Source: a virus (Duplodnaviria > Caudoviricetes). From it: a DNA stretch of 58,272 nucleotides. The stretch lies in IMG/VR virus record IMGVR_UViG_3300029448_000039, positions 1 to 58,272 of that record. The stretch is one strand, 5' to 3'. The notes below the pieces were generated by a model. It had not been told where the DNA came from and did no database searches. It saw only the letters and a program-made list of their open reading frames with translations. Made by a program: the position numbers and the translations under genes. Positions within the stretch are counted from its first letter, which is position 1. Every line of letters begins with the position of its first letter. Below, in pieces: positions 386-58,272 of the stretch.

Positions 386-3317
386 TGTAGGTTCTGATGC
401 GTTTAAACAGTATGACAGACAAATACCTCAAGCACTCGAAAAAGAAATGTTACAAAGTTTACCTGCTAATAAAAGAAAAGAATATCGACAAGATAGAAAA
501 TATTTATATTCTCGTGAATCTGGAGCTAAAATTATTAATGAAAATGAAATTTTAGATCAACCACAAGTAGAACCAACTGTAAGAGAGGCTCTTGGTAGTC
601 AAATTGAGAGTGGAAGAATAGCAGAAATTGACAGATTGACATCTAATGTTACTAATGCATTGAGATTTTTTCCTATAACAGAAGAAATGAGAAAAGAGTC
701 AACAAATTCTATGGCTTTAGGTTCTACTCAAGCTAGAAGAATGGCTGTAGTCAATTCTGGTAAAAAAGAAAGAGATAATTTATCTAGAAATATTAGAGAC
801 AGTATTTCTAATTTTGTTGGGAACAGTAAGATGTTTGATCCTTTATATGGTGTTCCTATGCAAAGAGATTACCTTTTGAATAGAGGTAGGGCACTAGGTA
901 TATTTAATCAAGCAGAACGCATAGCATTGAAGCTTAGAAAGGATATAGCACCTTATTTAGATAAAAATAATCCATTAAGAAAAAGCAACCATCAAGAAGT
1001 AAGAGCATTATTATTTAAATATTTAAGTACATCTCCTAAAAATGGAGAGTTGGCTTTGTATAAACAATTAAAAGATGTAAATCCTAGAATGGCAAAAACA
1101 GCTTTAGATGCTAAAGATATTATAGAAAGACTAGGACAACAGTTAGTAGAAGCTAATATTATTCCTGCCAGTTCTTTTGAGATAAATAAAAGATCTTATT
1201 TGCCTAGACTGTATATAGAGCATGTATTAAAAAATCCTGCTGGCGATGCTAGAAGTTATGCTAAGAAAAGAAAAGAAGATGCTTCAGATTCATTAACAGT
1301 AATTGATGAATTAGCTCCTGAGTTTTTGGTATCTAGAGCAATACAAAGACCAATGAGAGACTTAGCAATGCTAGAGTTTTATAACTCAATAGCAAAAAAT
1401 AGACAATGGACTCTTGATGGTGATTTGGCTGATGTTGAATATGATGGTAAAAAAGTTAGTTTTTTCTGGTTATATGAACAACAAAAACAATATAGAGAAA
1501 TAGCACAGTATTTAGATAGAGATCCTGAAAGAAAAGCAAAAATGCTAAAAGAAGCTGATGATATGTTAGTTGTTGCTAATCAAGCTAGAGATAGATATGC
1601 ACAAGAATATGATATTAGACCTGAAGATATATTTAACCAAGAACAAAGTGAATCTAGGTTTCAAGCACCTGAAGGATTTAAAAGAGTTCCTAATAACAGA
1701 TTGTATGGTCTTATGGCAGGTAAAGCAGTTAGGTCAGGTATATATGAAGATATAATATCATCTATAAGCTATACAGCTTGGGGTGATAATAATTATGTAA
1801 AAGCAGGTAAATTAGCTAGACAATTAACATCTACATGGAAGTTAATAAAAGTTCCATTGAATCCTCCAACAGTAGCAAGAAACGTGATGTCAAATGCAAT
1901 ACTAATGAATCTTTCTGGTATGCCTATAAGAAGAATAATGCCTAATTTTTATAAAGCTGTTAATGAAATGATAGCTTTTGGTAAAGGAGATATGGCTAAT
2001 TCTAAGCATTACAAAGCTTTGTTAGATAGAGGTGTAGCTGAAACTTCATTTACAGAAGCTGAATTGTTTAGATGGGCAGAAGATTTTAAAGAATTTACAA
2101 CAGAAAGATCAATAAATGAATTAGGTATTCTTTCTTGGTTGCATTTGAAAGGATGGAGAAGATTAGCTAACAAAGCTTCATTTTTATATCAAAACATAGA
2201 AGTTATGGGTAAAACTGCTATGGCAATAGAAATGATGGAAAATCAAAATAAAAATGCAGATGAAGCATATTTAATTGCTCAAGATGCATTGTTTGATTAT
2301 TCATTAGTATCTCCTACAGTTAGAGGATTAAGAACAAGTCCTATTGGTATTCCTTTCTTAACATTTATGTATAAAGTGACTCCTAAATTAATAGATGTTG
2401 CATTGAATAATCCATTTAGATTAGCACCTTACATGGCTATGGGATTAGCATTACCACACTTATTTATGCATATGTTTGATATTGATGATGATGATTATGA
2501 GAAGATAAAACAGTTATTACCATCTTATACAAATGACTTTGGAACTTTTCCTATACCTTATAGAGATGATGCAGGCAGAATGCAGTTTCTTGATTTAGGA
2601 TATATAATGCCACATGGTTTTATAACTCAACTTTTAGAACAAGCTTATAAAGCCAAAAAAACATTATCAGATGAGCCACAAGCAGAAGATTTTGATTTAG
2701 GAGAAATTTTAAGAACTTTAGGTTTATTTGGTGGCCCTGCATGGTCATTAGCAGGTTTATTTACTAATACAGATCCATTTTTGAAAAGAAATATAGCAAG
2801 AGAAGGTGAGCCTTTATTTATAGAAACTGATAAAGATTTTGATGTTTCGATACCCGGTATATTTAAGAAAGATGGTAAGGTAGTTAGTTATGTTCAATAT
2901 GCAATGAATCAGTTTTTCTTGCCTTCATTTTTACATACTGAGTATGGTGCAACAAATAGATTAATTAGTGCAGTGCAAGAATCTGGTGAAATAAATGATA
3001 AAAATAGACTTACTATTAATCAAGCACTTTTAAAGTTTATAGGTTTAAACATCTTTGCTATAGATCCTAAGCAAAATGAAATGGCAATAAAAATGCTAGA
3101 ACGAGAAGTTAATGATTTAAAGTCTGCTAGAAGAAGAATGGCAAGAGATAATAGTTTAAGTGTTCAGGATAGAAATACTAGAAAAAGTTCTTATGATGAA
3201 GCGATTTTAGATAGGAGAGAAAAAATATCATTCATGAAATCAAGATTAGAGTTATTTGATGCAGAAGATTCTGATTTAGTGGGTAAAGTAAAAAGCGATA
3301 AACAAAGGTCAAAATAA
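1..3317 (+). CDS. C-terminal part of giant virion/ejection (large polyvalent-like) protein, continuing in frame from 52499 across the circular junction
   Basis: The frame is open from position 3. Bases 1-385 correspond in frame to 57885-58272. The helical C-terminal region resembles the ends of large phage internal proteins. Confidence 0.8.
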   Translation, partial: LRSEQSGLVEEFVIFRYGIPQSLAGAMDTEQLDLNQSEQYMMPLSQVGLDKDEFLSADDVFEFEDRGVIYNGRTTFQKFIGQDISDFLQEISLQQDGVVTIEDLPEVLREEFDGNYTGIDLEGRVDIPVGSDAFKQYDRQIPQALEKEMLQSLPANKRKEYRQDRKYLYSRESGAKIINENEILDQPQVEPTVREALGSQIESGRIAEIDRLTSNVTNALRFFPITEEMRKESTNSMALGSTQARRMAVVNSGKKERDNLSRNIRDSISNFVGNSKMFDPLYGVPMQRDYLLNRGRALGIFNQAERIALKLRKDIAPYLDKNNPLRKSNHQEVRALLFKYLSTSPKNGELALYKQLKDVNPRMAKTALDAKDIIERLGQQLVEANIIPASSFEINKRSYLPRLYIEHVLKNPAGDARSYAKKRKEDASDSLTVIDELAPEFLVSRAIQRPMRDLAMLEFYNSIAKNRQWTLDGDLADVEYDGKKVSFFWLYEQQKQYREIAQYLDRDPERKAKMLKEADDMLVVANQARDRYAQEYDIRPEDIFNQEQSESRFQAPEGFKRVPNNRLYGLMAGKAVRSGIYEDIISSISYTAWGDNNYVKAGKLARQLTSTWKLIKVPLNPPTVARNVMSNAILMNLSGMPIRRIMPNFYKAVNEMIAFGKGDMANSKHYKALLDRGVAETSFTEAELFRWAEDFKEFTTERSINELGILSWLHLKGWRRLANKASFLYQNIEVMGKTAMAIEMMENQNKNADEAYLIAQDALFDYSLVSPTVRGLRTSPIGIPFLTFMYKVTPKLIDVALNNPFRLAPYMAMGLALPHLFMHMFDIDDDDYEKIKQLLPSYTNDFGTFPIPYRDDAGRMQFLDLGYIMPHGFITQLLEQAYKAKKTLSDEPQAEDFDLGEILRTLGLFGGPAWSLAGLFTNTDPFLKRNIAREGEPLFIETDKDFDVSIPGIFKKDGKVVSYVQYAMNQFFLPSFLHTEYGATNRLISAVQESGEINDKNRLTINQALLKFIGLNIFAIDPKQNEMAIKMLEREVNDLKSARRRMARDNSLSVQDRNTRKSSYDEAILDRREKISFMKSRLELFDAEDSDLVGKVKSDKQRSK

Positions 3318-3754: not shown

Positions 3755-3946
3755 ATGCAAAGGTCTACATTTAAAGAAGCATCCTTGATAAGAATAGAAG
3801 CACATGAAAAAGAATGCGCTATTCGATATGAATATATTGAAAGAAGATTAGAAGAAGGCGCACAAAGGTTTAAACGACTCGAAGCAATAATTTGGGGTGT
3901 ATATCCTTTTATTGTGGGTAGTATAATTTTGAGTAAATTTATATGA
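3755..3946 (+). CDS. Small coiled-coil protein with C-terminal TM helix (XhlA/holin-like)
   Basis: HEKECAIRY coiled coil plus a hydrophobic C-terminus; directly follows the endolysin. Confidence 0.6.
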   Translation: MQRSTFKEASLIRIEAHEKECAIRYEYIERRLEEGAQRFKRLEAIIWGVYPFIVGSIILSKFI

Positions 3947-6375: not shown

Positions 6376-7102
6376 TAATTATAACAAAATGATTTATGGT
6401 ACTGTAATGCTTGCGTTTTTGTTTGCATATAGTTTGTCTTATTCTGATGATAATGAAATCTATGTAGATCAAGTAGGTGCAACAGCAAATATAGATTTAG
6501 AGCAGTTAGGTTCTGGAAACATTATAGGTGGTTTAAACAGTGCACATGGATCTATGAATCCATTTGATTTAGATGGTGCTACGATGACATTAGATGTCAA
6601 TCAAATTGGAAACAACAACAAAATGCTTGGTGACATTAATGCAGATACGTTTACTGGCATCTTTGACTTTGATGGTGATACTAACTCGTATACTATTCAA
6701 GTTGATCCCGGAAACGCTAATTCGGCAGACAACGCAAATGTAAATGTGAACGTGGATGGTAGTACAAATACCATGTCATTAGATTTGGCTACGAATGCTT
6801 TATCTAGTGGTGCAGATATAGACACTATAGTTCAAGGTTCAAGCAATACTGTTCATATTGATTTAGATGTAGATTCAGGTACAAATTATATTGATTTGGA
6901 CGGGGACAGTAACACTGTTGACTATAATGGAGATGGATATGCAGGTGTTTACTTTAAATTAGAACATGATGGATCAACAAGGAGTTTTGACATTGATCAA
7001 CAATCTACGCAAGACAATGATTGGCTGCGCGTACTTAGCAATGGTTCTGGTGGCAGCGTTTGCATTAATCAGTCGGACCAAGGTACTAGCACAAGTTGTT
7101 GA
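6368..7102 (+). CDS. Secreted curlin-like beta-solenoid protein (CsgA/CsgB-like)
   Basis: Signal peptide; repeated strand-(Q/D)-G-x-x-N arcs (DQVG, EQLGSGN, NQIGNNN, DGDTN, DGSTN, QGSSN, DGDSN); adjacent to csgG. Confidence 0.7.
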   Translation: MNNNYNKMIYGTVMLAFLFAYSLSYSDDNEIYVDQVGATANIDLEQLGSGNIIGGLNSAHGSMNPFDLDGATMTLDVNQIGNNNKMLGDINADTFTGIFDFDGDTNSYTIQVDPGNANSADNANVNVNVDGSTNTMSLDLATNALSSGADIDTIVQGSSNTVHIDLDVDSGTNYIDLDGDSNTVDYNGDGYAGVYFKLEHDGSTRSFDIDQQSTQDNDWLRVLSNGSGGSVCINQSDQGTSTSC

Positions 7103-8126: not shown

Positions 8127-8162
8127 TTTGATTAATTGTTTAAACATTATTAATATAAGAAG

Positions 8163-8387
8163 ATGAGAAACTATAGAAAAGAATACGATAATTATCAAAG
8201 TAGTTCTAAGCAAAAAAAAGATCGTGCAGGTCGGAATAAAGCTCGTAGAACTATGATAAAGGCAGGGAAGGTAAAGAAAGGTGATGGAAAAGACGTTCAT
8301 CACAAAGATCGCAATCCAAAAAACAACAACAAAAAAAATCTAAGAGTATTATCTAAATCTAAAAATAGGTCGTTTAAACGAAAATAG
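8163..8387 (+). CDS. Small basic HNH-like endonuclease
   Basis: GDGKDVHHKD.NP.NN...NLRVLSKSKNRS. Confidence 0.7.
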   Translation: MRNYRKEYDNYQSSSKQKKDRAGRNKARRTMIKAGKVKKGDGKDVHHKDRNPKNNNKKNLRVLSKSKNRSFKRK

Positions 8388-9364: not shown

Positions 9365-9817
9365 ATGTTTAAACAACCTATGTTTATTATTTGTGCTTCG
9401 CTGGCTGCCATGCTGCTAGCAACTTCAGGAGCGTTTAAACTTTATTACGATAAATCTGAAGCAGAAAAACAGAACTTAGTAACACAGTTACAACAATCAA
9501 TGAACAATCAATTGTTGTTGGAAAATTCAATAGAAGAGCAAAACAAAGAAATAGAAAAGCATTTATCTAGAGAAAAAGAATCGCAAGCACAGATAGCAGA
9601 TTTAACTGAGAAGAATAATCAAGCACAGGAACAAGTAAGTGATTTAAGGAGCAAGTTTGCTAAACATGATTTAAATATGCTCTCTATGGCTAAACCTGCT
9701 CTTATAGAAAGATTAATTAACAGAGGAACAGATAAAGTAGGCAAAGAGATAGAAGTGCTTACAAATCCAAATCAATTTAATGAAGAAATTATTTCTGACA
9801 CTAATAATACTGACTAG
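9365..9817 (+). CDS. Inner-membrane spanin (Rz-like)
   Basis: N-terminal TM helix plus long coiled coil; overlaps a lipoprotein gene. Confidence 0.75.
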   Translation: MFKQPMFIICASLAAMLLATSGAFKLYYDKSEAEKQNLVTQLQQSMNNQLLLENSIEEQNKEIEKHLSREKESQAQIADLTEKNNQAQEQVSDLRSKFAKHDLNMLSMAKPALIERLINRGTDKVGKEIEVLTNPNQFNEEIISDTNNTD

Positions 9818-10213: not shown

Positions 10214-10849
10214 TTATCTAACGACATATCCCATAAAGTTATAGCTTTGCCATACTTTAGAGACCTTACCTATCTTTTTTAGTTCTTTTTCTAATTCAGA
10301 TTCTGTCTTACAAAACATAGAATGAGATAATTGTAAGTCTTTGTCTAAAATTTGTTTACTACTAAAGCCTTTTCTTTTTTCCTGTATGTGCAATCTATGT
10401 ATAGCTTGTTGTAAAACAGGATCGTTTAAATATACTTTTTCTGCAATCAACAAGACAGCACCTTCATCTATTTGTTGTTTAAACAGTTTCAAAACTCTTT
10501 TTCTTTTGACATTTCCAAGAAATTGCAGGAAAAACATGCTAATCATCACAGAAATATTGCCATTCCATACAGCACAACTAAAAAAATCTTCAATATCTCC
10601 CTTCCAAAATTTAAAATAATCTTGTTTTTTCATGTCAATTTCATCGACACCGACATAATCGCACTCATTTATCTTAGTCAAGGAGTCCAAAAACCTACCT
10701 GTCGAACATCCAAAGTCTATAACTCTCGACTCAGGATGAGCATATTGATGAGTTATTTGTCTAAATATAGAGTCTAGTGTTGATAAATTAGGTATAGAAA
10801 GTTCTATATGCTTATCAAAGTCTTTAATTTTACTAAAATCAAATTTCAT
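10214..10849 (-). CDS. cmoA: CmoA-like (carboxy-SAM synthase family) SAM-binding protein
   Basis: FDKHIELSIP, DFGCSTG, FFLQFL, LLIAEKV, KRKGFS..QI..K, WQSYNF match CmoA hallmarks. Confidence 0.8.
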   Translation of the reverse strand: MKFDFSKIKDFDKHIELSIPNLSTLDSIFRQITHQYAHPESRVIDFGCSTGRFLDSLTKINECDYVGVDEIDMKKQDYFKFWKGDIEDFFSCAVWNGNISVMISMFFLQFLGNVKRKRVLKLFKQQIDEGAVLLIAEKVYLNDPVLQQAIHRLHIQEKRKGFSSKQILDKDLQLSHSMFCKTESELEKELKKIGKVSKVWQSYNFMGYVVR

Positions 10850-12002: not shown

Positions 12003-12200
12003 TTATTTTTGTTTTTTTATAACTAAATCATATTCTAAGGCATTAAAAACCTTCTCTAGAGTGCTAATTTTAGGCTCATGTATTCCTCTTTCCATGCATG
12101 AGAGATAATGTTTAGACATTCCTATAATTTCTCCTAATTGTTCTAAAGTTAATTTTCTATTATGTCTAGCTTCTCTAAGCTCACTACTCCAATTAGTCAT
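12003..12200 (-). CDS. XRE-family HTH regulator
   Basis: LREARHNRKLTLEQLGEIIGMSKHYLSCMERG..EPKISTLEKVFNAL. Confidence 0.9.
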   Translation of the reverse strand: MTNWSSELREARHNRKLTLEQLGEIIGMSKHYLSCMERGIHEPKISTLEKVFNALEYDLVIKKQK

Positions 12201-12658
12201 ACGACACCTTTATCTCTTTTTAAAAAATCTTGTAAATGTAAGTTTAAACGCTGTTGTGCAGATGGAGATGTCTTGATTTCTGACCTGCTACCGACACGAC
12301 AAACATTTCTAATTACATGAGCACAAAGCTCTTCATCTTCTAGATCCAACTGTTTAATATTCCATTTCTCTGCGTTTAAACGAACCCAAGTTTGATAATC
12401 AGCATCTTTACAGATTAAACATGCTCTTGATAAAGCTCTTTCTCCTTCATTTTTAGCTTTAGCTTGCATCGGTTCTTCTTGATCATTTATCTGAACACAA
12501 GCAACCATGTATCTTGAGCCTATTGCAGATACAGCCATATCAGGAGGAATATCATCAGGATGTAAAACAAAAGATAGAACAACTCCATCTTTAGTTTGTC
12601 TATAGGCATACTTCTTGCATTCAAAATGCTCTGCCATATTTTCTATCTCATTTTTCAT
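12197..12658 (-). CDS. Hypothetical phage protein
   Basis: 153 aa; ATGA-coupled. Confidence 0.7.
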   Translation of the reverse strand: MKNEIENMAEHFECKKYAYRQTKDGVVLSFVLHPDDIPPDMAVSAIGSRYMVACVQINDQEEPMQAKAKNEGERALSRACLICKDADYQTWVRLNAEKWNIKQLDLEDEELCAHVIRNVCRVGSRSEIKTSPSAQQRLNLHLQDFLKRDKGVV

Positions 12659-13684: not shown

Positions 13685-13699
13685 GTTTAAACACTCAAA

Positions 13700-15657: not shown

Positions 15658-16030
15658 CCAGATAATTTATGGAGAATGTTGCTCCAAAGCAAACTCTCGT
15701 AGATTGGTGCATTTTGGAGGTAAACCTAGATTCATCAAAAGCAAAAAAGCATTAGTTTTTGAGCGTGATGTGCAACTGCAAGCTAAAAAAATAAAACCGA
15801 TGCTCGAAGGCGATCTCATGATTGAAGCCGATATATATTACTCGTCTCGCAGACCAGATCTAGATGAAAGTATCCTTCTGGATGCTTTGCAAGGCATCTG
15901 GTATCAAAACGATAGAGCGTTTAAACATAAAGTTATACGAAAGTTTCTAGACAAGAAAAATCCGAGATGTGAAGTAACAGTAACCGAAATTGATTGGGAT
16001 GAAAAAAAACCTCCTACAACCATAAATTGA
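15632..16030 (+). CDS. RusA-like Holliday junction resolvase
   Basis: SKANSRR, RRPDLDES.LLDALQG.WYQNDR, DKKNPRCEVTV. Confidence 0.85.
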   Translation: MKKEKRQVNQIIYGECCSKANSRRLVHFGGKPRFIKSKKALVFERDVQLQAKKIKPMLEGDLMIEADIYYSSRRPDLDESILLDALQGIWYQNDRAFKHKVIRKFLDKKNPRCEVTVTEIDWDEKKPPTTIN

Positions 16031-22608: not shown

Positions 22609-22665
22609 AATCTGCCCTCCTTTAGGACATTGTTAATGTGTTTAAACGTACTTACCTGCTGATGT

Positions 22666-24091: not shown

Positions 24092-24120
24092 ATCGTTTGC
24101 TCCTATGTTTAAACAGTTAA

Positions 24121-29061: not shown

Positions 29062-29095
29062 GTTGTTTAAACTATAATATTCTATAGGAAAATAT

Positions 29096-46730: not shown

Positions 46731-46742
46731 TGTTTAAACAGA

Positions 46743-48704
46743 GTGAGACTTAATATGCCAATGGAAGATTTTAGAAAACTTATAAATTCTAACAAAGATA
46801 TGAGAAATATGAACGATGGTGGCATGATGAGACCAATGCAACCTATGGCTGAAGCATTAGCAGAGAAAGGTCGCTTTGGTGATACTATGCTTGTTCATAT
46901 GAATCCAGCAGAAGTGCAAGGATTAGCATCGCTAGTTCCTAATGGGCAATTAACTATAAATCCAGATACAGGTCAACCTGAAGCATTTTTACCATTATTA
47001 TTAGGTTTATTAGGTTCTGGTTTAGGTGCAGCAGGAGTGGGTAATGCATTACTTTTAGGTTCATTAGGCTCAGGTATAGGAACTGCTATTGAATCAGGAA
47101 GCCTTAAAAAAGGCATACAAGCAGGATTGTTGAGTGGTTTAATGGGTGGTCTAGCTGGAAAAATGTTTACAGGTGCTAAAGCTGCAACAGATGTTGCAAC
47201 ACAAGCTGGAACAAAAGCTGTAACAGATGCTGCAACACAAAGTGTTACTGAATCAATAGCAAATCAAGCTCTTAGTTCAGCTACAGCAGGTACTACAGAA
47301 GCTGCAAAACAAGGAATTATGGGTAGCATAGGTCAAGCAGGTCAAGCACTTATGGATCCTTCAAATTTACTTGGTGCACAAGGAACACTTGCTACTGGTT
47401 TAACTCCCGGTTTAGTTGGAGAAGCACAATCGTTTCCAGAGTATGACTTTAGCCAAGTAAACGAACAAAACAAAGAAGATCCTTACCGAAGAGCAGTATT
47501 AAGAGATAGAGGATTTACACCTGCTCCTGAAGGTTATCGTCCGGGTATTGATCCAGAGCATAACTATTTTCAGAATCCATTTGCATTTGATTTATTAACA
47601 CCAGAACAATCAGAAATGTATCCTTACCCTATGGATCCAATTAGAACAATGGCAGGAGGAGGCTCATTAAAAGAAATTCCTGAAGGTAATAAAGGATTAG
47701 CAAAATTACCAACAGATGTTAGAAATGAAATAGGCTTTATGGCAGATGGTGGTTTAGTTGATGATGAGAAAAAGCCTAAAGGTTATTTTATGGGTGGTCA
47801 GTTTAGTTCTACACCTTTTGGAATAAGAGGCATGACAAACGCACCGATGAATTCATATTCATTTTCACAACCTTCTTATCAACCAATGAATCCTTTTAAT
47901 CAACCACAATATATGTATGGTGGATTAAATCAAAGACCTATGGGAGCTTCAAGAGGCGGTAAAAATAGAATGCAAATGCAACCTGTTCCACCTCCTCCTA
48001 GACCTAGTAGACCATCTAAAGGTGCTAGTAATTTTAATTTCACACCTACACACTTACTACCACAACCTGCTCCAGAAGGAACAATGTATGATCGTGGTGA
48101 TCCATTTGAAAGAGATATGTATGAAACAGCACCTGATCAATTCCAACGTGAGGTGTATACTCCTCCAGAAGATATATCAGCAAATCCAGATTTAGCTATA
48201 CCAACTAGAAATTTATTTGAACCTGCTTCTGCTCAACAAAATGTTGTAGATAATCCTTTTGAAAGAGTTCCTTTAACAAGAGGTACACCACAAGAAAACT
48301 TTGCTAATTTTTTTAAAAGAGCTTCTTTAGGACAGCTTAGACAAGCACCTAATCCTAGTCCATTTTCTTCAGGATTTGGTGGTATGAGAAGAAGAATAGG
48401 AAGAAGAAGAGCAGAGGGAGGTCGTTTAAACATGCCATTTGAAGGTTTACTTCAAGGAGAGGGTGGTGGTATGGATGATATAATACCAGCAGTTATTGAT
48501 GGCAAAGAGCCAATTTTGGTATCTAGAAATGAATATGTAGTTCCTGCTGATGTAGTTTCTTCTTTAGGAGATGGTAGCACTAATGAAGGTGCTGACATGT
48601 TAGATTCATTAGTAGCTAATACTAGAATAGAAAAAAATGGCAGTCCAATACAGCCTAAGCCTTTACAAAGTAGTATGCTAGATCTTATGGATAGGAGAGT
48701 TTAG
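46743..48704 (+). CDS. Internal virion/ejection protein
   Basis: GRFGDTMLVHM, TINPDTGQPEAF, Gly/Ala hydrophobic segment, G.GGGMDD.IPA, EYVVPADVVS.LGDG. Confidence 0.75.
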   Translation: MRLNMPMEDFRKLINSNKDMRNMNDGGMMRPMQPMAEALAEKGRFGDTMLVHMNPAEVQGLASLVPNGQLTINPDTGQPEAFLPLLLGLLGSGLGAAGVGNALLLGSLGSGIGTAIESGSLKKGIQAGLLSGLMGGLAGKMFTGAKAATDVATQAGTKAVTDAATQSVTESIANQALSSATAGTTEAAKQGIMGSIGQAGQALMDPSNLLGAQGTLATGLTPGLVGEAQSFPEYDFSQVNEQNKEDPYRRAVLRDRGFTPAPEGYRPGIDPEHNYFQNPFAFDLLTPEQSEMYPYPMDPIRTMAGGGSLKEIPEGNKGLAKLPTDVRNEIGFMADGGLVDDEKKPKGYFMGGQFSSTPFGIRGMTNAPMNSYSFSQPSYQPMNPFNQPQYMYGGLNQRPMGASRGGKNRMQMQPVPPPPRPSRPSKGASNFNFTPTHLLPQPAPEGTMYDRGDPFERDMYETAPDQFQREVYTPPEDISANPDLAIPTRNLFEPASAQQNVVDNPFERVPLTRGTPQENFANFFKRASLGQLRQAPNPSPFSSGFGGMRRRIGRRRAEGGRLNMPFEGLLQGEGGGMDDIIPAVIDGKEPILVSRNEYVVPADVVSSLGDGSTNEGADMLDSLVANTRIEKNGSPIQPKPLQSSMLDLMDRRV

Positions 48705-49171
48705 TGCTAGTTTCTTCAATGGTTCCAAATAATTTTGTTGGTCCTATATGGTCACAAGTAGAGCCATTGTTAAGTAAATTAATAGATAGAAGTCATGAAA
48801 GATTTCAATCAATAGATATATTACATGATTTATTAATTAACAAACAACAATTATGGATTGTTTGGGATACTGAACAAGACTATAAAATAGTTGCAATGTT
48901 AACGACTGAGGTATTTAGATATCCTCGTAAAAATTATTTAGTTGCTCAAAACTGTGCAGGAACACGCATGAAAGAATGGTTTGATGATATTTACGAGAAC
49001 ATTACAAAATATGCAAAATCAATAAATTGTGATGGTGTTGAAGTAATAGGAAGAAAAGGTTGGATTAGTAATTTTAAAAAGAAAGACTGGAAAGAAGAAT
49101 TTGTTATAATGTCAAAAGAGTTTAAACAAAATAAGGTTAATAAAACAAACCTTAAAGTAGTAAATAATTAA
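48704..49171 (+). CDS. GNAT-like protein of the ejection module
   Basis: QLWIV, YPRK, CAG..MKEW, CDGVEVIGRKGW. Confidence 0.6.
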   Translation: MLVSSMVPNNFVGPIWSQVEPLLSKLIDRSHERFQSIDILHDLLINKQQLWIVWDTEQDYKIVAMLTTEVFRYPRKNYLVAQNCAGTRMKEWFDDIYENITKYAKSINCDGVEVIGRKGWISNFKKKDWKEEFVIMSKEFKQNKVNKTNLKVVNN

Positions 49172-49182: not shown

Positions 49183-50376
49183 ATGGGTGGTCGTAGTAGC
49201 GCACCTCAGGGTACACAACAAGTATCATCTACTGTTACTCAAAACAGATTAGATCCATACGCTAAACCTTATTATATGAATATGATGAGAAGTGCAGAAG
49301 CACTTCTTGGTGAGGGTTATACTCCATATCAAGGTCAAAGAATAGCAGAGTTTACACCTGATCAATTAGGTGCTTATCAAGGTATTAGAGCAGTAGCAGG
49401 TAGACAAATGCCCGGTTTAGGTCAAGCTAGAGATACAGCTATGGGTTTAGCTCAAGGTGTAAATGTACCTCAAGTCACTTCTGCATATCAAGGAAGAGAA
49501 GTAGCACCTACTTATCAAGGAAGAGAGGTATCACCTGTTTATCAAGGCAATCAATTTCAAGAAGAACGCATTTTAGATAGAATGCAGGATTATCAAAATC
49601 CATATACAGAAAATGTATTGGATAGATTGCAACAAAGAGCAATAGATAGATTTGATGAACAACAATCAAGAAGAGGCTTACAACAAGCACAAAGAGGTGC
49701 TTTTGGTGGTAGTAGAGCTGCGTTACAAGATATGCAAGCAGAAAGAGATCTAGAAGATAGATTAGGTGATATAGAAGCACAACAGTTACAAAAAGGATTT
49801 ACACAAGCTTCAGGACTAGCAGCTAGAGATATAGATCAAGCTATGAAAGCAAGACAGCTAGGAGATCTTTCACAAAGGGCTGCTGGACAACAATTTTTAG
49901 CATCACAACAATTATCTGATCAAGCACAAAGAGCAGCTGGTACACAGTTCTTAACATCACAACAACTTTCTGACCAAGCTATGAGAGCAGCTGGTACACA
50001 AGGCTTACAAGCTGATATGGCTAATCAGAGAGGATTTTTTGGAGGATTGGATGCACAAATGAGAGCAGCTGGTATGTTACCGGGAATCGAATCTAGAGAA
50101 CAACAGTTAGATTTAGCTCGTTTAAACGCTTTAAGAGGTATTGGTGTAGATCAACAAACTATGCAACAGTCATTTTTAGATCAAGCTTATCAAGACTTTG
50201 TAAATCAAAGAGATGCACCAAGACAGTCACTTTCATTCTACAACTCACTGTTACAAGGATTGTCGAATGCTCCTGTATCTTCTAATGTTATGCAATTTCA
50301 GCCTAGACCTAATCCATATGCACAAGCATTAAACATGGGATTGGGTGCGTTTAATATGTATCAAGGTATGGGTTAA
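49183..50376 (+). CDS. Internal virion/ejection protein
   Basis: Gln-rich; YQNPY, GAFGGSR; internal 9-aa and 18-aa repeats. Confidence 0.75.
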   Translation: MGGRSSAPQGTQQVSSTVTQNRLDPYAKPYYMNMMRSAEALLGEGYTPYQGQRIAEFTPDQLGAYQGIRAVAGRQMPGLGQARDTAMGLAQGVNVPQVTSAYQGREVAPTYQGREVSPVYQGNQFQEERILDRMQDYQNPYTENVLDRLQQRAIDRFDEQQSRRGLQQAQRGAFGGSRAALQDMQAERDLEDRLGDIEAQQLQKGFTQASGLAARDIDQAMKARQLGDLSQRAAGQQFLASQQLSDQAQRAAGTQFLTSQQLSDQAMRAAGTQGLQADMANQRGFFGGLDAQMRAAGMLPGIESREQQLDLARLNALRGIGVDQQTMQQSFLDQAYQDFVNQRDAPRQSLSFYNSLLQGLSNAPVSSNVMQFQPRPNPYAQALNMGLGAFNMYQGMG

Positions 50377-52498: not shown

Positions 52499-55400
52499 AT
52501 GGCTACTTCAGAAGAGGAACTTAGAAAAGCCTTATTAGCAAGAAGATTTTCTAAAGAAACGAAATCTAGTGGCAGAGTAAATCCTTTTATTCAAACTTTA
52601 GAGTCAGCTAAGTTTGGTATAAAACCTCCTGAACCTGTATTACAAGAACCAGTTGAGCCACAACCAAGAGAAGATATTTCTGGATTTTCTTTAAATGAAC
52701 TAATAGAAAGAAGGGCAAAAAGAAATCCTAACTATATTGATGCTTTAGATAATGAATATATAGGGCAAGATGTAGTAATAGAAGAAGAGAAAACACCAGA
52801 CAGTGACAATCCATTTGTAACTGCAATTCGTGGTATTAGTAGAGGTGGTGCACAAACAGCACTAACAGCAGGTCAAGGTATATTAGCTTTAGCTGATGCA
52901 GTAACAGATGCTGTAGGCTTTGAAGAGCTTATAGATAGCGAAGATGGTGAAATGATAAGGCTTCTAAATGAAGCTAGAGAATATGTAGGCTATGAAGAAG
53001 GAGCAGGTGGTAAATTAGCTGAAGCTATTGGCTCTATGTTGATATTTGCAGTACCGGGTATGGCTCAAGCAGGTTTTTCAGCAAGAGCAGCAACTGCTGC
53101 TATGAAAGGTCAGCAGGGTTTACAGATAGCACAGCAAGCAAATAGATATGCAAAAGGTATGCAAGCCTTAAAATTTACTACAGCAGGTGGTGTAGGTGCA
53201 GGTACATCAGATCAAATGATGAAAGCCTACAAAGAAGCAGGCGGTGAATACACAACAGGTCAAAAGAATTTAGCACTAGCAATGGGTGTTGGTATTGGTT
53301 TTACAGAACTATTACCAATAGAAATGATATTGAAAGGTTTACCTAGAGCTTTAGATAGGAATGTTAAAAACTCAATAGTAAAAAGAATAGCAAATGCTGT
53401 TGCTGATGGAGGTATGGAGGGTGTGCAAGAAGTAGGTGCATCATTAGCTCAAGAGTATTCAGCACAGATGATTTACAATCCTGATCAAGAAATAGGCGAA
53501 AGTATGCTATCTGACTTTGGTTATGGTGGTGGTGCAGGTGCTATATTCAGTTTATTCTTGCGTGGCAAAGGTAGAAAGATTGGAAGAACACAAGCAGATC
53601 AACAAGCATTAGCTGATGATTATGAACAAACTCAACCATCTCCAGCATTCACAGATAAAGAGTTACCTGTAGATAAGAAAATTGCAATATATGATACTAA
53701 TGGCAAAGAAATAGAAGGTAAGGTTATTAGTGTTAATCCTGATGATAATACTTCAACGATTGAAATAGAAGATGGTGACATAAAAAGAAAAATAAATGTT
53801 CCATTGAGAGCAGAAATAAATAATGAAGGATACTCTTTATTTTCTGATGAAGAGTTATTTAATCCTAAAAACTCACTAGACATTGCCGACAAAGATGGAA
53901 ATGTTATCAATTACCCTGTTGGTAATCCTGAAAAAACAACAAATGAAATTTTAGAAAAAGAAGAAACTAGACTAAGTAAATTAGCTGCTCAGGTAAAAAT
54001 ATCTGAACAAGATGTATTTAAATTAAAAGTAATAAGAACAGAGCTTGCTAGAAGAGAAGCATTAACAAGCGATACATTGATTGATCCTGAACAAATAGAT
54101 GTTGAAAAAAGTCAACAGGATTCTCTTGAAGAAGAAGCACAAACAGGTAGCTCTAAGTTTATTAGAGATGTAGATGATTTAACTAGACGAACTACTCAAG
54201 AAGCAGAGGCTGAAGCAGAAGCAAGAGCTAGACAAGAAGGTATAGATGTAGAAACAGATCAATTTGTACCTGTTCCTAATAAGTTTAGTAATACTACATT
54301 TGATTTACCTGATCCTGATAGCAGTATTGCATATAATTTAGGCAGAAGAGGTAAAGATCCTAGCGAAGAATCAATAGAAAGAACTGCTATAGATTTAGAT
54401 TTAAGTGTAAATGAACTAAGAACTTTGTCAAAAAGCTATGCTAGTGATGTTCAAGCAGAAATAAAAAAACAGAAAAAAGGTGCACCTAGATATACAGCTA
54501 CATCGTTTAAACAGTATGCCGAACAAAATAAACCTTATGATATTCGTGATAAGCAGATAGCTAGACAAAGAAAAGAATTAAAAATAGCTAATCCAAGATT
54601 TAGACAATTAATTAATCAAGTTACTGATTTAACAGGTGTAAATGTAGAAGATTTAAATTCATTACAAAGAGCAGAGCTTGTAGATTTAATGTCTAAAGAA
54701 AAACAAGCACAAGATGCTATAAAAAATCAAGAACAAGTAAAACTAGAAACTTCTTTAAATGATGATGGTAACTTAGAAATAAAAGTCAAAAGTAGAGCAG
54801 ATACTAAAAAAGCCGAGCCATTAGAAACAATAGTTATTGAATCAAGTGAAGATGGTATAAATAGATTACTTGAAATGGGGCAAAAATATAATCTTTCAGA
54901 AAATGATACTGATAATGTATTACAGTCTGCAACAGCGTTAGATCAAAACATTAAAGCATCTCAATTAACTAATGATTACTTTAGAGCATTAGATTTAGCT
55001 ACTAAGAATAAAACTGTGACTGTAAAAGGTTTACAAAAGAAATTGTATGGTACTGATATTGATAATCTTGAGGATTTTAGAAAGACACAAGAAATACTTT
55101 TAGCTATGCAAGAACAAGGATATGTATCAGAACCTACTGCAAATAAACCTACATCTAAAAGACAAGTATTACAAAAGTTTACTGCTATAGATACAGCAGG
55201 AGAAATATTAGTACAAGATGTAGATCAAGAAGGTAATAGAATTTTAGATATAACTCAAGAACAAGAAGAAGTAGCTAACAAAGTTAAAAATATTATTGAA
55301 GGTGTAGCTCCGGGAAGTCAATTAAAGCTAGCACATGTAATAAGAGATAGAGTTACTGGTAATAAATTATTAGGTGCACAATTTAAAAATATTATTGCAG

Positions 55401-58272
55401 TTACTTTAGATGGCAGAGAAAAAGATATAACAAGTCCAGCTTATCATGAAGCCACACATTATCTTTGGAACAATGGATTTTTTAATGAACAGCAAAGAAA
55501 AACTATACTAGATAATAGAGATTATTTAAGACAAATAGTTAAAAACAACATTATTACTAATGAAACACAATATAATTCTATCTTTTCTCCTTTAGACGAA
55601 GCAGGTGAAATGGATGAACTATTAGCTTATACATCAGGTTATTACAATGCTTCTATGGATCTTAACAATACACCTCCTACATTCTTAACTGATGAAGTAA
55701 ATGGAATATTAAATAACTTATATGAGATGTTTAAACAGTTAGCCAGATATGTAAGTGGCAATAACACACTGTTTACACCTACTGAACAACAAGCTATTAC
55801 TCAGATACTAGATGATGTTCGTTCAGGAGCTATTGGTAGACAAGACATGTTTTTTAACACTGATGGTACTGATCCAGTTGCCAGAAGGGCTGCTATTATT
55901 ACAGGGTATCCTGATGGGCGAATGCCAAGTTCTTTTCAATTACAAGCACCATTAAAAGACTATATAAAACAAACTCAATTAAAACAAAAAAAGAAAGGCT
56001 CTGAATGGTTATTTAGGAATGATAAAGGTCAAATTGATGGTGTTTTAAAGAAAGCTAAATTTAAAACAAAGTTTAGAACCAGTGCAATAACTGATACTGA
56101 GTTAAAGAATGTAGGTTTATATCAAGAATTAACAAATAATCCTGACAAAATATATAGCGGTCAAGAGTTACTCAATATAATTCAACGTAATGAGAATATG
56201 TTAGTTATTACGAGTTTTGGAGAAAATACTAACGAAGCTAGTTATGGTGTAATTAGTCAAAAAAGAGATGAGTTGAGACAAAGAAAAAGAACTTTATTTG
56301 ACACAATGATTCAAAGAAATCCAGTAGACATATTATGGAGTCTTAGTGAAGCAAATAAACAACAATATTTTGCACAAGATTCAGGTTTGATAACTAATTT
56401 TTTAAGTAAGTATGTAGATAGTGAAGGTAATTTAAAACTAGGTCGAAAAGTAGAAGGTTATAATCAGGAAGAAGTATCTAGGGAGATATTAGATCTTACT
56501 ACAAAGCTTACAGATACACCTGTAGATTCATTAGTTGATATTTATTTAAATGCTAATCCAAATATTAATAAAGCAATTTCTGATTTTCCAAGTTTTAGAT
56601 TAAATTACAAGCAATATATGAGTGAATTGGGAGATACTCCAGAAGCACTATTTAGAAATAGACAAAAAAACACTAGGATTATGGCAATAAAATTATTGCA
56701 CAATCCAGAGGGAATAAACCCAATGATGAATACAGGAATTTCTCTTGCACAAATTAAAGAAAGTGTTGATAAAGTTAGAACAGATGCTATTACTACAGCA
56801 AATACATTAGTAAAAGAATATGGATACACAGATGAATTTTTAACATCATTTGTTGATTTAATAGAAAACTTATCTACACAAAAAAGACTTGAGCTTGAAC
56901 ATAAAAGAAATACAGGTGGATATAACACTGAATCTAGTGTTGAAGATTCTAATAATTTACAAAGAAGATTAGGTAGTCAGTCTCAAGAATTTCAAAATTG
57001 GACATTTCCTTCAACAAGAGGGCAAGATGTCAACAACTATGGGTTATATGTTTTTAGTATGCCTAATTTAAATTTAGAAGATTTAGAAATTGTTAGACAA
57101 GAAATAGATCCAGATCTAGAAGTACAACCAAGTTTAAATAAATTTGGTAAAGGAAAAAATATAATTAGTTTTCCTGCTTATATAAAAACAAAAAGAGATA
57201 CAGGTTTTGGCACAGAAATTTTAGAAGTTTTTCAAAATGATAGATTAAGTAGTATAAATCATTTTAATAATATAGCTAATCCATTTGCTCATTTTAGATC
57301 TACTGACTTTATTACAGTTGATGGTGAAAAAGTTTTAGTAGTAGAAGAAATACAAGCTGATTACTTAAACTACTTAGAAGATGCTTTAAATATATATATA
57401 ACTTATCAGATGAGAGAAAAGACTAATGTTAATTATCTTAGTTTTTTAAAAGATATGAGAACTTTAGTGCCAAATAATCTTCTTGATAGATATGATGCTT
57501 ATGTTGAATTAGAAAGAACTTTAGAAGAAAGAACACTACAGACTTTACAAAAAATTCCTAGTATAGGAATATTAGATGAAGAGGCTGCATTAAGACTTGA
57601 TAATTTAGCTTCAGAAAGAAAAGAATTTTCTAGATTATTAGCTAGACAAGATATTAGGTCTCCTGAACAAACTCAATACAAAGAAATGATTGAAATAAAT
57701 CAACTACCTGATATTCCTTACAAAACACAAAACGAAATGATTGAATTTGTAAGTAATTTTGCAATACAAAAAGCCGCATCAGAAGCATACGATGGTATTG
57801 CTATAGTTAATAGTGAGTTACAAAACGAAAGATATAGACATAATTTTAAAAATTCTATTAGCAGTATCGAAGCTGAATTTATTGAATTACGCTCAGAACA
57901 GTCAGGTTTAGTCGAAGAATTTGTTATTTTTAGATATGGAATACCACAATCTGAATTTGCTTTATCAATGGGTACAGAACAACTTAGTTTAGATCAATCA
58001 GAACAATATATGATGCCTTTAAGTCAAGTTGGATTAGATAAAGATGAATTTTTATCTGCTAATGATGTAATGGAATTTGAAGAAAGAGGTGTTGTTTATA
58101 ATGGAAAAACAACTTTTCAAAAATTTATTGGACAAGATATATCAGATTTTTTAGAAGAAATATCATCGCAAGAAAATGGAGTAGTGACAATAGAAAATTT
58201 ACCTGAGGTTTTGAGAGAAGAATTTGATGGTAATTATACTGGTATAGATTTAGAAGGTAGAGTAGATATTCC
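52499..58272 (+). CDS. N-terminal part of giant ejection / large polyvalent protein (runs off the window end, so absent from the ORF track)
   Basis: ATG at 52499; no stop in the stretches I translated; EGVQEV..S.AQ motif, YHEATH at about 55442, AHFR...VEEIQAD at about 57290-57362; frame continues at position 3. Confidence 0.8.
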   Translation, partial: MATSEEELRKALLARRFSKETKSSGRVNPFIQTLESAKFGIKPPEPVLQEPVEPQPREDISGFSLNELIERRAKRNPNYIDALDNEYIGQDVVIEEEKTPDSDNPFVTAIRGISRGGAQTALTAGQGILALADAVTDAVGFEELIDSEDGEMIRLLNEAREYVGYEEGAGGKLAEAIGSMLIFAVPGMAQAGFSARAATAAMKGQQGLQIAQQANRYAKGMQALKFTTAGGVGAGTSDQMMKAYKEAGGEYTTGQKNLALAMGVGIGFTELLPIEMILKGLPRALDRNVKNSIVKRIANAVADGGMEGVQEVGASLAQEYSAQMIYNPDQEIGESMLSDFGYGGGAGAIFSLFLRGKGRKIGRTQADQQALADDYEQTQPSPAFTDKELPVDKKIAIYDTNGKEIEGKVISVNPDDNTSTIEIEDGDIKRKINVPLRAEINNEGYSLFSDEELFNPKNSLDIADKDGNVINYPVGNPEKTTNEILEKEETRLSKLAAQVKISEQDVFKLKVIRTELARREALTSDTLIDPEQIDVEKSQQDSLEEEAQTGSSKFIRDVDDLTRRTTQEAEAEAEARARQEGIDVETDQFVPVPNKFSNTTFDLPDPDSSIAYNLGRRGKDPSEESIERTAIDLDLSVNELRTLSKSYASDVQAEIKKQKKGAPRYTATSFKQYAEQNKPYDIRDKQIARQRKELKIANPRFRQLINQVTDLTGVNVEDLNSLQRAELVDLMSKEKQAQDAIKNQEQVKLETSLNDDGNLEIKVKSRADTKKAEPLETIVIESSEDGINRLLEMGQKYNLSENDTDNVLQSATALDQNIKASQLTNDYFRALDLATKNKTVTVKGLQKKLYGTDIDNLEDFRKTQEILLAMQEQGYVSEPTANKPTSKRQVLQKFTAIDTAGEILVQDVDQEGNRILDITQEQEEVANKVKNIIEGVAPGSQLKLAHVIRDRVTGNKLLGAQFKNIIAVTLDGREKDITSPAYHEATHYLWNNGFFNEQQRKTILDNRDYLRQIVKNNIITNETQYNSIFSPLDEAGEMDELLAYTSGYYNASMDLNNTPPTFLTDEVNGILNNLYEMFKQLARYVSGNNTLFTPTEQQAITQILDDVRSGAIGRQDMFFNTDGTDPVARRAAIITGYPDGRMPSSFQLQAPLKDYIKQTQLKQKKKGSEWLFRNDKGQIDGVLKKAKFKTKFRTSAITDTELKNVGLYQELTNNPDKIYSGQELLNIIQRNENMLVITSFGENTNEASYGVISQKRDELRQRKRTLFDTMIQRNPVDILWSLSEANKQQYFAQDSGLITNFLSKYVDSEGNLKLGRKVEGYNQEEVSREILDLTTKLTDTPVDSLVDIYLNANPNINKAISDFPSFRLNYKQYMSELGDTPEALFRNRQKNTRIMAIKLLHNPEGINPMMNTGISLAQIKESVDKVRTDAITTANTLVKEYGYTDEFLTSFVDLIENLSTQKRLELEHKRNTGGYNTESSVEDSNNLQRRLGSQSQEFQNWTFPSTRGQDVNNYGLYVFSMPNLNLEDLEIVRQEIDPDLEVQPSLNKFGKGKNIISFPAYIKTKRDTGFGTEILEVFQNDRLSSINHFNNIANPFAHFRSTDFITVDGEKVLVVEEIQADYLNYLEDALNIYITYQMREKTNVNYLSFLKDMRTLVPNNLLDRYDAYVELERTLEERTLQTLQKIPSIGILDEEAALRLDNLASERKEFSRLLARQDIRSPEQTQYKEMIEINQLPDIPYKTQNEMIEFVSNFAIQKAASEAYDGIAIVNSELQNERYRHNFKNSISSIEAEFIELRSEQSGLVEEFVIFRYGIPQSEFALSMGTEQLSLDQSEQYMMPLSQVGLDKDEFLSANDVMEFEERGVVYNGKTTFQKFIGQDISDFLEEISSQENGVVTIENLPEVLREEFDGNYTGIDLEGRVDI
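57885..58272 (+). repeat. Terminal direct repeat, copy B (diverged)
   Basis: 388 nt matching 1-385. Confidence 0.95.

Follow-up and report, generated by a model that had tools for sequence, protein, structure and literature searches.

Evenly spaced copies of an exact 8-bp palindrome, graded from the terminase gene, in a clade of marine tailed phages

Introduction

Phages usually shed palindromes, and IMG/VR virus record IMGVR_UViG_3300029448_000039 raises the question of why a phage genome should keep one palindrome in dozens of exact copies. The record, 58,272 nucleotides of a marine tailed phage, was analysed over its whole length and is referred to below as the window; the palindrome is the 8-bp sequence GTTTAAAC. 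A sequence-only reading of the window had listed 40 sites, taken them as a sign of selection at the DNA level and proposed as their cause a dimeric protein that coats the first-injected DNA (a host nucleoid or segregation factor, an ejection protein or a phage helix-turn-helix (HTH) protein), a HIP1-like element, or the phage DNA transferase. Here, we ask how the sites are maintained, in which phages they recur and what may read them.

Results

Copy number and consensus of the palindrome

All 40 listed coordinates carry exact GTTTAAAC, and there are no further copies in the window. The palindrome is the commonest 8-mer of the record, with 40 copies against ~2 expected (~20-fold). Markov models of orders 0-4 predict 1.6-3.7 copies, and dinucleotide shuffles (n = 100) gave a mean of 1.69 and a maximum of 5. 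The enrichment also persists under a codon-aware null: 28 sites lie in coding DNA, compared with 4.89 ± 1.69 (maximum 10) in 300 synonymous within-gene shuffles that kept the proteins unchanged. The same null predicts 1.9 coding sites in the relative G004, 2.4 in G007, 4.0 in G008 and 1.3 in G006, where 25, 35, 35 and 11 are observed. The remaining 12 sites of the window fall in the 5.3% of the record that is noncoding and are ~8-fold denser there than in coding DNA; the open reading frames (ORFs) come from a simple longest-ORF call, so statistics that depend on gene boundaries are approximate.

The palindrome is flanked by weaker symmetric preferences. As the sequence-only reading had counted, a pyrimidine precedes it (position -1) in 33 of 40 sites and a purine follows it (+8) in 37; 30 sites have the full YGTTTAAACR. 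Pooling 399 non-identical site contexts, read in both orientations, yields the symmetric consensus YR-N3-Y-GTTTAAAC-R-N3-YR, which spans ~20 bp and has Y at -1 in 85%, R at -5 in 78% and Y at -6 in 68% of contexts. The outer flank signal lies one helical turn from the motif centre. This symmetry agrees with the earlier suggestion of a dimeric protein, and the recogniser is probably two-fold symmetric. In G006, the flank preference is weak, with 6 of 17 sites being full 10-mers versus 36 of 48 in G007 and 31 of 47 in G008. Variants of GTTTAAAC with one mismatch are not enriched (28 versus 43.6 expected in the window and 14 versus 21.3 in G004), which suggests that recognition is close to all-or-none.

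Other palindromes are avoided in the window: TGTACA and ACTAGT occur once each (14.4 and 11.4 expected) and CTGCAG three times (17.3 expected). The strongly depleted 6-bp palindromes are TGTACA, ACTAGT, ATCGAT, AACGTT, CTGCAG, GCTAGC and CCATGG. Depletion of this kind normally points to restriction avoidance, and the enrichment of the 8-mer stands in contrast to it.

Selection on the sites

Alignments of related genomes show that the sites are retained above the background of 8-mers. The window (G000) and G001, which align at 90% identity, share 34 of 37 sites, compared with 53% of all 8-mers and 50% of the 8-mers that lie 12-20 nt beside sites. For G003 and G004 (74% identity), the values are 19 of 25 sites, 15% and 9%, and for G007 and G008 (70% identity), 8 of 10 sites and 8% of all 8-mers. 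In protein-guided codon alignments of the window with six relatives, 25 of 70 sites are retained versus 3.0% of random 8-mers. Together with the codon-shuffle null, this retention substantiates the proposed selection at the DNA level. In four of 24 listed public runs, all of them contigs, 0 of 40 variant positions (out of 141) lie inside sites, which is uninformative given that ~0.5 is expected.

Individual positions can move. The primase-helicase gene contains three sites in the window and also three in G004 and G005, at other positions. Between the window and G006, 0 of 6 sites are retained, yet the density in G006 is maintained, which argues for turnover of sites under selection for their number.

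Spacing and polarity of the array

The sites are spaced more evenly than expected by chance. In the 10 kb upstream of terS, the small terminase gene, the coefficient of variation (CV) of gap length in the window is 0.40 versus 0.91 in the null (P = 0.0004), and the largest gap is 989 bp versus ~2100 bp expected. Over the same interval, all seven genomes compared are under-dispersed (CV 0.34-0.46 versus 0.91 at random, P <= 0.0026), and their largest gaps measure ~1.0-1.35 kb versus ~1.8-2.3 kb expected. Typical spacing is ~0.6-1 kb in the early/replication half, and gaps of 6-9 kb occur in the structural half. Nineteen sites are located within 15.9-27.3 kb and a single one between 31.7 and 46.7 kb, as first described.

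The array is also polar. Moving upstream from terS, successive 10-kb intervals contain 16, 10, 5, 5, 1 and 3 sites in the window (Spearman rho 0.51, P = 0.0008), 15, 12, 5, 3, 1 and 2 in G001, and 14-16, 8-10, 6-7 and 2-5 in G003-G005. On the terL side, the density drops sharply, to 4 sites in the first 6-10 kb downstream. The sites are dense over early and middle genes and sparse over the late genes that are expressed most. Sequence constraint was rejected as the cause of the gradient: the conserved primase-helicase gene is dense in sites (3 in 1.7 kb), and the poorly conserved giant ORF is sparse.

Sites favour gene ends, with 17 of 40 lying within 60 bp of a stop codon versus 7.7 expected; the same is seen in G004, G007 and G008. 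Away from terS, additional close pairs or triplets, 30-70 bp apart, are found in the window (9367/9433 and 18421/18490), in G001 (31424/31494/31535) and in G002 (33099/33142/33172). Unlike the pair at terS, they are not conserved across lineages. A role of the sites as a recombination or module-boundary signal was rejected, since the ends of blastn homology blocks in seven genome pairs are not nearer to sites than other gene boundaries are (P = 0.17-0.99); in some of the seven pairs, the block ends are nearer to sites than jittered positions. Physical ends do not mark sites either: 4 of 208 locus or record ends are within 30 bp of one, about the chance level.

The terS triad and the control region

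A triad of sites brackets terS, with two sites 60-73 bp apart upstream of the gene and one at its 3' end. Practically every one of the 34 motif-bearing sequences that match TerS has the triad, though the outermost site is missing from a few. In G006 and L053, a diverged terS candidate (ORF 8404-9105; weak profile match, E = 0.09) is bracketed by sites at 8379, 8495 and 9137. The TerS of the window matches in profile the solved small terminases 21di (E = 2e-6) and 3zqp (E = 1.6e-4); the latter is from SF6, an SPP1-like phage with headful packaging from pac. Further conserved sites are found at the terL-portal junction and directly after the portal gene.

In six lineages, the control region upstream of terS has a common order: the distal site, 1-4 nt, TGTCAAC, a T-rich stretch, a hairpin, the proximal site and terS. 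TGTCAAC, conserved in 6 of 6 aligned lineages, corresponds to TTGACA when read along the early-gene strand. The TTGACA that the sequence-only reading had placed next to a site does occupy 26809-26814 of the minus strand, with two bases separating it from the site 26799-26806. The hairpin occurs once in the window and is retained in G003, G004 and G007; its stem covaries, with pairing preserved in G008 and G002 (TTACCC/GGGTAA, TTATAC/GTATAA, TGACC/GGTCA). It could be a terminator, a pac cleavage site or a hairpin promoter. Between 15 and 32 kb, terminator-like matches are at chance level.

Distribution among relatives

The enrichment recurs in related phages from IMG/VR, a comparison for which the sequence-only reading had asked. 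There are 38 sites in 59.9 kb of G001, 21 in 48.9 kb of G002, 36 in 42.5 kb of G003, 38 in 42.5 kb of G004, 40 in 45.6 kb of G005, 48 in 54.4 kb of G007 and 47 in 57.3 kb of G008. G006, the most divergent motif-bearing lineage (24.8 kb, 42% complete, GC 55%), has 17, and G009 and G010 are motif-free, with 0 sites each. These genomes are not independent, the window and G001 being one species and G004 and G005 close, and represent about five lineages.

The occurrence of the motif tracks terminase similarity. IMG/VR relatives with a TerS identity of at least 41% all carry it, at a GC content of 36-57%. A TerS profile search added 11 loci with 41-47% identity, all 11 of them motif-bearing (1.0-1.7 sites per kb), and 34 loci with 32-38% identity, 32 of which are without the motif. 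Among 80 IMG/VR loci compared by terL, GTTTAAAC is the top or near-top 8-mer at identities of at least 61% (~0.4-1.7 per kb, GC 36-57%) and is essentially absent at 59% or below. Exceptions in the former group are L050, which has a terL identity of 63% and 0 sites over 11 kb, and three loci confined to the sparse structural side. In the sister lineages, five named relatives, among them the Pelagibacter phages HTVC023P and HTVC027P, contain 0-3 copies in 58-65 kb of sequence. We therefore conclude that the GTTTAAAC array is a trait of one clade and is independent of base composition.

No similar array was found in the sister lineages. One motif-free relative, L089, has a local cluster of 17 copies of CCCGACCC, all on one strand within ~3 kb (4729-7831) and iteron-like in appearance; other repeats in these lineages are coding. 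Near their replication genes, phages whose primase-helicase is 26-34% identical contain other 8-bp palindromes, grouped locally: 5-9 copies of TACTAGTA (L118, L120, L121, L123 and L124), 4-8 of AAAGCTTT (L149, L151, L156, L171, L177, L179 and L181) and 4-5 of CTTTAAAG (L134, L136 and L144). These look like origin or operator repeats and were rejected as comparable dispersed arrays, being local clusters only.

Candidate readers

Two of the readers suggested earlier fare poorly. The phage DNA transferase, a C5-methyltransferase encoded at 10839-12002, turned up solely in the window and in G001, its near twin, and not in G003-G008. A host factor is unlikely, as the motif persists across a GC range of 36-57% and sister phages do not carry it. 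The array is most probably read by something encoded in the clade itself.

The two HTH genes that the sequence-only reading had named are real. The genes at 12003-12200 (HTH_3) and 19069-19464 (HTH_23) occur in 7 of 7 motif-bearing genomes that cover the region, and neither is found in the motif-free G009. As a classic example of a protein type that reads palindromes as a dimer, the HTH_3 protein is a candidate. Its gene is coupled to ORF 12197-12658, the product of which is the only small non-enzymatic protein also found in G006. This protein has no Pfam or NCBIfam family and no significant sequence match in PDB; its 2,690 relatives are all hypothetical proteins, and an Atlas search leads to unnamed viral clusters. 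The product of ORF 16215-16604 weakly resembles HTH_36 in the Atlas structure search (TM 0.51).

The clade-specific genes all co-vary with the motif: the TerS subfamily, a SprT-like/AAA_5/vWA (DUF7192) trio that is also present in L053 and G006, the genes for primase-helicase, RusA and exonuclease, the HNH gene at 12889, the ORFs at 12197, 13700, 16215 and 8396, and both HTH genes. Motif-free relatives with a distant TerS are without all of these, and no recombinant that separates the candidate readers was found.

Gene content of the record

The window is a whole IMG/VR record that CheckV classes as linear and 100% complete. Its first 385 bases (1-385) repeat the final 388 (57885-58272) at 93.6% identity, which indicates a circular map and a true length of ~57.9 kb; the duplicated end segment contains 0 GTTTAAAC sites. 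The ends of G001 overlap likewise (94.5% identity). A giant virion ORF of ~2,900 amino acids (aa), without Pfam or PHROG family, crosses the junction, running from 52499 to 58270 and continuing to 3317. By terL, the nearest named phages are DSL-LC04, 023Pt_psg01 and Pelagibacter phages HTVC027P and HTVC023P (52-57% identity).

Coordinates of the sites and genes are collected in Table 1. The SprT-like protease, AAA_5 ATPase and DUF7192/vWA (CobT-like) protein form a conserved trio, found on the minus strand at 23267-25969 in the window and at 2109-5754 in L053, and in all motif-bearing lineages the leftward early block starts, among its conserved genes, with this trio; actinophages commonly carry SprT-like homologues too. 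At 10214-12200 (minus strand), an FtsJ/SAM-methyltransferase-like ORF, the C5 DNA methyltransferase gene and the Cro/CI-type HTH gene stand in a row, and the first two are found in the window and G001 only. The CsgF-like, CsgG-like and FecR-like genes make up a partial curli (type VIII secretion) module, matching the curli gene set that PMC9599517 describes for uncultured HTVC023P-type pelagiphages. A Pfam scan of 50 window ORFs, outside which most structural ORFs between 31.8 and 46.7 kb lie, found no DNA polymerase, integrase or ParB/KorB-like protein.

Seventeen marine or seawater public runs contain at least half of the sampled words from a 10-kb stretch of the window, and the runs that contain this stretch wholly or partly come from 13 studies. 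Among bacterial genomes, none turned out to contain a close relative; a search of genome contigs with terL gave three matches of at most 57% identity, in contigs of metagenome-assembled genomes.

Table 1. Sites of GTTTAAAC and other features of the window
Feature	Position	Strand	Remarks
Site	401..408		giant virion ORF, frame 2, A-F-K-Q
Site	3043..3050		giant virion ORF; position retained in G003 and G005
Site	3868..3875		noncoding, between lysozyme gene (end 3753) and ORF 3943
Site	6531..6538		CsgG-like/FecR-like gap; within alternative ORF 6368-7102
Site	8138..8145		noncoding, 12 nt beyond FecR-like stop
Site	8372..8379		8 nt ahead of stop of small HNH_3 ORF 8163-8387
Site	9367..9374		overlaps start codon of ORF 9365-9817; first of 66-bp pair
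Site	9433..9440		ORF 9365-9817; second of 66-bp pair
Site	10477..10484		FtsJ/SAM-methyltransferase-like ORF 10214-10849 (-)
Site	12242..12249		ORF 12197-12658 (-), ~40 bp upstream of HTH_3 start; position retained in G003-G005
Site	12374..12381		ORF 12197-12658 (-)
Site	13685..13692		noncoding, 8 nt beyond stop of ORF 13700-13951 (-)
Site	15919..15926		RusA gene 15632-16030; position retained in G003-G005
Site	16828..16835		primase-helicase gene, 1 of 3
Site	17263..17270		primase-helicase gene, 2 of 3
Site	17892..17899		primase-helicase gene, 3 of 3
Site	18421..18428		noncoding, after primase-helicase gene; first of 69-bp pair
Site	18490..18497		second of 69-bp pair
Site	19290..19297		HTH_23 gene 19069-19464 (-)
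Site	19847..19854		ORF 19437-19928 (-)
Site	20469..20476		small ORF 20446-20625 (-), 23 nt ahead of stop
Site	21209..21216		DUF3846 ORF 21132-21530 (-)
Site	22033..22040		ORF 21976-22305 (-), 57 nt ahead of stop
Site	22640..22647		noncoding, 19 nt beyond stop of ORF 22666-23016 (-)
Site	23265..23272		its TAA is the stop codon of DUF7192 gene 23267-24160 (-)
Site	24107..24114		7 nt beyond AAA_5 stop, within start of DUF7192 gene
Site	25096..25103		AAA_5 gene 24121-25341 (-)
Site	26008..26015		noncoding, between ORF 26053-26502 and SprT-like gene 25370-25969 (-)
Site	26799..26806		distal member of pair upstream of terS; adjoins TGTCAAC
Site	26871..26878		proximal member, 72 bp from distal; ~20 nt before terS ATG at 26899
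Site	27284..27291		terS 3' end, invariant R-L-N codons
Site	29065..29072		noncoding, 4 nt beyond terL stop; same place in L019, L020, L021, L026 and L029
Site	31645..31652		small ORF 31599-31802 after portal; position retained in G002-G005
Site	40766..40773		tail-spike-like ORF 40345-42831; only site between 31.7 and 46.7 kb
Site	46732..46739		noncoding, 2 nt beyond stop of ORF 46383-46730
Site	48424..48431		ORF 46743-48704
Site	49120..49127		ORF 48704-49171; position retained in G004 and G005
Site	50120..50127		ejection-protein-like ORF 49183-50376
Site	54505..54512		giant virion ORF
Site	55729..55736		giant virion ORF; exact 8-mer retained in G002-G005, protein 26-32% identical
Hairpin/palindrome, 15 bp	26848..26862	+	6-bp stem, 3-nt loop, then T-run; between control-region sites
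terS	26899..27309	+	Pfam Terminase_2; PHROG terS; profile matches to solved small terminases; candidate motif reader
terL	27481-29061
Portal gene	29096-31615
Major head protein gene	34263-35201
Ejection-protein-like ORF	49183-50376
Lysozyme gene	3319-3753
CsgF, CsgG and FecR-like genes	5145-8126
C5-methyltransferase gene	10839-12002		Pfam E = 2e-47
HTH_3 gene, Cro/CI-type	12003..12200	-	candidate dimeric reader; Pfam E = 4.5e-10
ORF	12197..12658	-	153 aa; coupled to HTH_3 gene
HNH gene	12889-13179
PD-(D/E)XK exonuclease gene	14723-15712
RusA gene	15632-16030
Primase-helicase gene	16601-18313		T7-gp4-like
HTH_23 gene	19069..19464	-	candidate reader; Pfam
DUF7192 gene	23267-24160	-	Pfam
AAA_5 gene	24121-25341	-	MoxR/CobS-like; Pfam
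SprT-like gene	25370-25969	-

Discussion

What could keep some forty exact palindromes in place across this clade? The reading that we consider most likely, and put forward tentatively, is an array of operators and roadblocks for a phage-encoded symmetric DNA-binding protein; we infer here protein binding at GTTTAAAC, the identity of the binder and an effect on transcription. The palindrome with its weaker symmetric flanks (~20 bp) would be the recognition site of a clade-specific, two-fold-symmetric protein, probably a conserved small HTH protein. Selection holds the sites as an array that favours short intergenic gaps and gene ends and thins away from the control region, where the promoter-like TTGACA beside the distal site would head the leftward early genes. 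Bound there, the protein would repress as at an operator, and at the dispersed sites it would block elongating RNA polymerase travelling in either direction, with the result that early and middle genes would be shut down as a block. Diminishing returns of successive blocks would make the density fall both ways from the control region, as is observed. We favour this reading because of the operator-like placement of sites, their bias towards intergenic DNA and gene ends, their density over early and middle genes as against their scarcity over the late genes that are expressed most, the conserved HTH genes, and the precedent of the stoperators of mycobacteriophages.

Several observations weigh against it. 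Intergenic sites make up only 30% of the array, 28 of 40 being inside genes, and the gradient continues without a break through gene blocks that point in opposite directions, which a purely transcriptional model does not predict. Between 15 and 32 kb, there are 39 matches to sigma-70-type promoters versus 53 in shuffles, which makes the promoter reading of TTGACA weak. With no integrase among the 50 ORFs scanned, the phage looks virulent; a lysogenic silencer is therefore unlikely, and a role in lytic shut-off is only a guess. In G006, the slot beside the homologue of ORF 12197 is occupied by an RHH-like ORF (RHH_3, below the Pfam cut-off) and not by HTH_3. Since all clade-specific genes co-vary with the motif, phyletic patterns cannot single out its reader. 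Finally, stoperators are asymmetric 13-mers that are bound by a monomer and oriented along transcription, whereas the sites described here are palindromic.

A packaging signal is the main alternative, and although rather unlikely it is the one that best explains the terS triad and the polarity. TerS would read GTTTAAAC, the triad would be pac, and the dispersed sites would serve re-engagement or cutting in the headful series, their density tracking regional use. The triad brackets not only terS but also the diverged candidate of G006 and L053; the motif goes with TerS identities of at least 41% and not with those of 38% or less; density declines upstream of terS in every genome and drops sharply on the terL side; TerS itself matches the solved small terminases 21di and 3zqp; and a spacing of 0.6-1 kb, ~1-2% of the genome, is of the order of headful imprecision in P22. 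However, known pac phages have one pac site, and forty strong TerS sites, which have no precedent, would scatter initiation. Headful cuts would fall on the sparse side if packaging proceeds from terS to terL, as it does in P22 and SPP1, and contig and locus ends are no nearer to sites than chance. TerS rings are not two-fold symmetric readers, and the terS-anchored gradient coincides with the boundary of early and late genes and is thus not specific to packaging. A ruler written into the sequence and coupled to the direction of packaging and ejection, with terminase or a virion/ejection protein reading exact GTTTAAAC sites whose density would rise steadily up to the last-packaged, first-ejected end, seems to us doubtful to a similar degree. 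Were it true, headful termination and re-engagement, or the handling of the incoming end, would be sequence-guided, a mode undescribed for any pac-type phage.

We regard as improbable a signal for DNA entry or protection, the line of thought of the sequence-only reading, in which sites in last-packaged, first-ejected DNA would bind a virion-delivered or very early protein, or would attenuate an end-entering nuclease as Chi does, both ways. The polarity would suit this only with the dense side as the first-injected DNA, which presumes packaging from terS to terL; the gradient does peak beside terS, on what should be the last-packaged side. Even coverage, a capped gap and declining density are what an attenuator or coating signal predicts, the exactness of the sites resembles that of Chi- or uptake-type signals, and the clade encodes large virion/ejection proteins (the ~2,900-aa ORF; 49183-50376). 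On the other hand, the circular map and TerS point to headful packaging with permuted ends, so that the first DNA in would be the sparse terL side; Chi is asymmetric and host-specific, whereas the clade spans GC 36-57%; and a candidate reader was not identified.

Slightly less probable still are loading or priming sites for replication, used by the primase-helicase or by the winged-helix-like protein encoded directly upstream of it, the palindrome serving either strand. The primase-helicase co-occurs with the motif: loci in which it is at least 83% identical carry the palindrome at 1.2-1.6 per kb, and a primase-helicase of 30% identity occurs in G006. ORF 16215-16604 is weakly HTH_36-like (TM 0.51), no DNA polymerase gene was seen among the 50 ORFs scanned, and the spacing of 0.6-1 kb is of the order of Okazaki fragments. 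Against this, known primases of this type read trinucleotides, the 6-9 kb gaps of the structural half would leave the lagging strand unprimed, replication offers no rationale for the gradient, and phages with a 27-34% identical primase-helicase are without the dispersed motif.

That the array is a HIP1-like by-product or a host signature, produced by biased repair, methylation-linked conversion or a motif-rich host with no function site by site, we consider very unlikely. Like GTTTAAAC, HIP1 is a hyper-abundant 8-bp palindrome whose one-off variants are depleted, and it is said, in work of Elhai from 2015, to co-occur with a cognate DNA methyltransferase; the window does encode a C5-methyltransferase. 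That enzyme is absent from G003-G008, and even spacing, a terS-anchored gradient and a conserved triad are not expected of a neutral process; the motif, moreover, does not depend on GC content, sister phages from the same waters do not carry it, and the search for a bacterial genome containing a close relative found none. Least probable of all is a restriction-modification target methylated by the phage enzyme: GTTTAAAC, the PmeI site, is an exact 8-bp palindrome in a window with such an enzyme, yet phages normally avoid restriction targets, as the window does with many 6-bp palindromes, while this 8-mer is enriched ~20-fold, and the phyletic pattern, with the enzyme confined to the window and G001, largely refutes the idea, which was rejected.

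A whole clade of widespread marine phages thus retains about forty exact palindromes, evenly spaced and graded from the terminase gene. They constitute a clean, strongly selected DNA-level signal with a short list of candidate readers, and any of the models would add a rule of phage genome organisation, be it a silencer that resembles stoperators but is palindromic, in a phage that seems virulent, a terminase signal scattered over the genome, or a signal for entry. In metagenomes, the GTTTAAAC array is a simple sequence marker by which the clade can be recognised.

Comparison with known systems

In full-text literature, we found nothing relevant on GTTTAAAC in phages or on dispersed, evenly spaced palindromic phage sites. 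The word stem 'palindrom' is absent from the main text (supplements aside) of PMC9599517, the main paper on the HTVC023P-type group.

Several systems share single features with the array. The pac sites of the SPP1/SF6 G1P type and the P1 pac hexamers are repeats in and just upstream of terS, and the TerS proteins are of the same structural family; pac, however, is a single locus per genome, whereas here there are 37 further dispersed copies. The KorB sites of RK2, C1 sites of P1 and SopB sites of N15 are dispersed palindromic operators of global regulators of plasmids or phages, present in ~4-17 copies across replicons of 50-100 kb and in some cases acting at a distance. The sites described here are far more numerous and regularly spaced, and no ParB/KorB-type protein is among the 50 ORFs scanned. 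Chi is likewise a short, exact, over-represented motif whose value is set by coverage, but it is asymmetric, strand-oriented and specific to the RecBCD/AddAB of the host; the motif of the phages is a palindrome, and the clade's GC range of 36-57% argues against one host system.

The HIP1 element (GCGATCGC) is a cyanobacterial 8-bp palindrome of unknown function that is over-represented 15- to 300-fold and conserved beyond background (PMC5861425). The likeness to HIP1 drawn in the sequence-only reading is statistical only: over-representation of at least 15-fold and conservation are shared, and the sequence, the cellular setting and the cognate methyltransferase are not. HIP1 resides in cellular chromosomes, with periodicity at 10-90 kb, whereas GTTTAAAC belongs to a phage clade and shows sub-kilobase spacing and a terS-anchored gradient.

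Along with HIP1, the nearest known systems are the stoperators of Cluster A mycobacteriophages (L5 gp71 type). As described in PMC9283540, dozens of copies of a short site are spread over phage genomes of ~50-60 kb, and the L5 repressor binds more than 20 sites in promoters and short intergenic spaces; the array exceeds 20 copies in the window (40) and in G003-G005, G007 and G008 (36-48). Also shared with stoperators, as that text describes them (PMC9283540), is a lineage-specific site, and placement at a promoter and in short intergenic gaps may be shared in part, 12 of 40 sites being noncoding and one adjoining the conserved TTGACA; stoperators are read by a phage protein, as we suppose for the array. 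In the window, 70% of the copies are intragenic and their spacing is regular and graded; the scan of 50 ORFs gave no integrase, and no immunity repressor was recognised alongside the conserved HTH genes. The array thus differs from both stoperators and HIP1 in being palindromic and phage-borne, with regular sub-kilobase spacing and a gradient anchored at the terminase gene, and by analogy it would be a palindromic counterpart of the operator/stoperator arrays of Cluster A.

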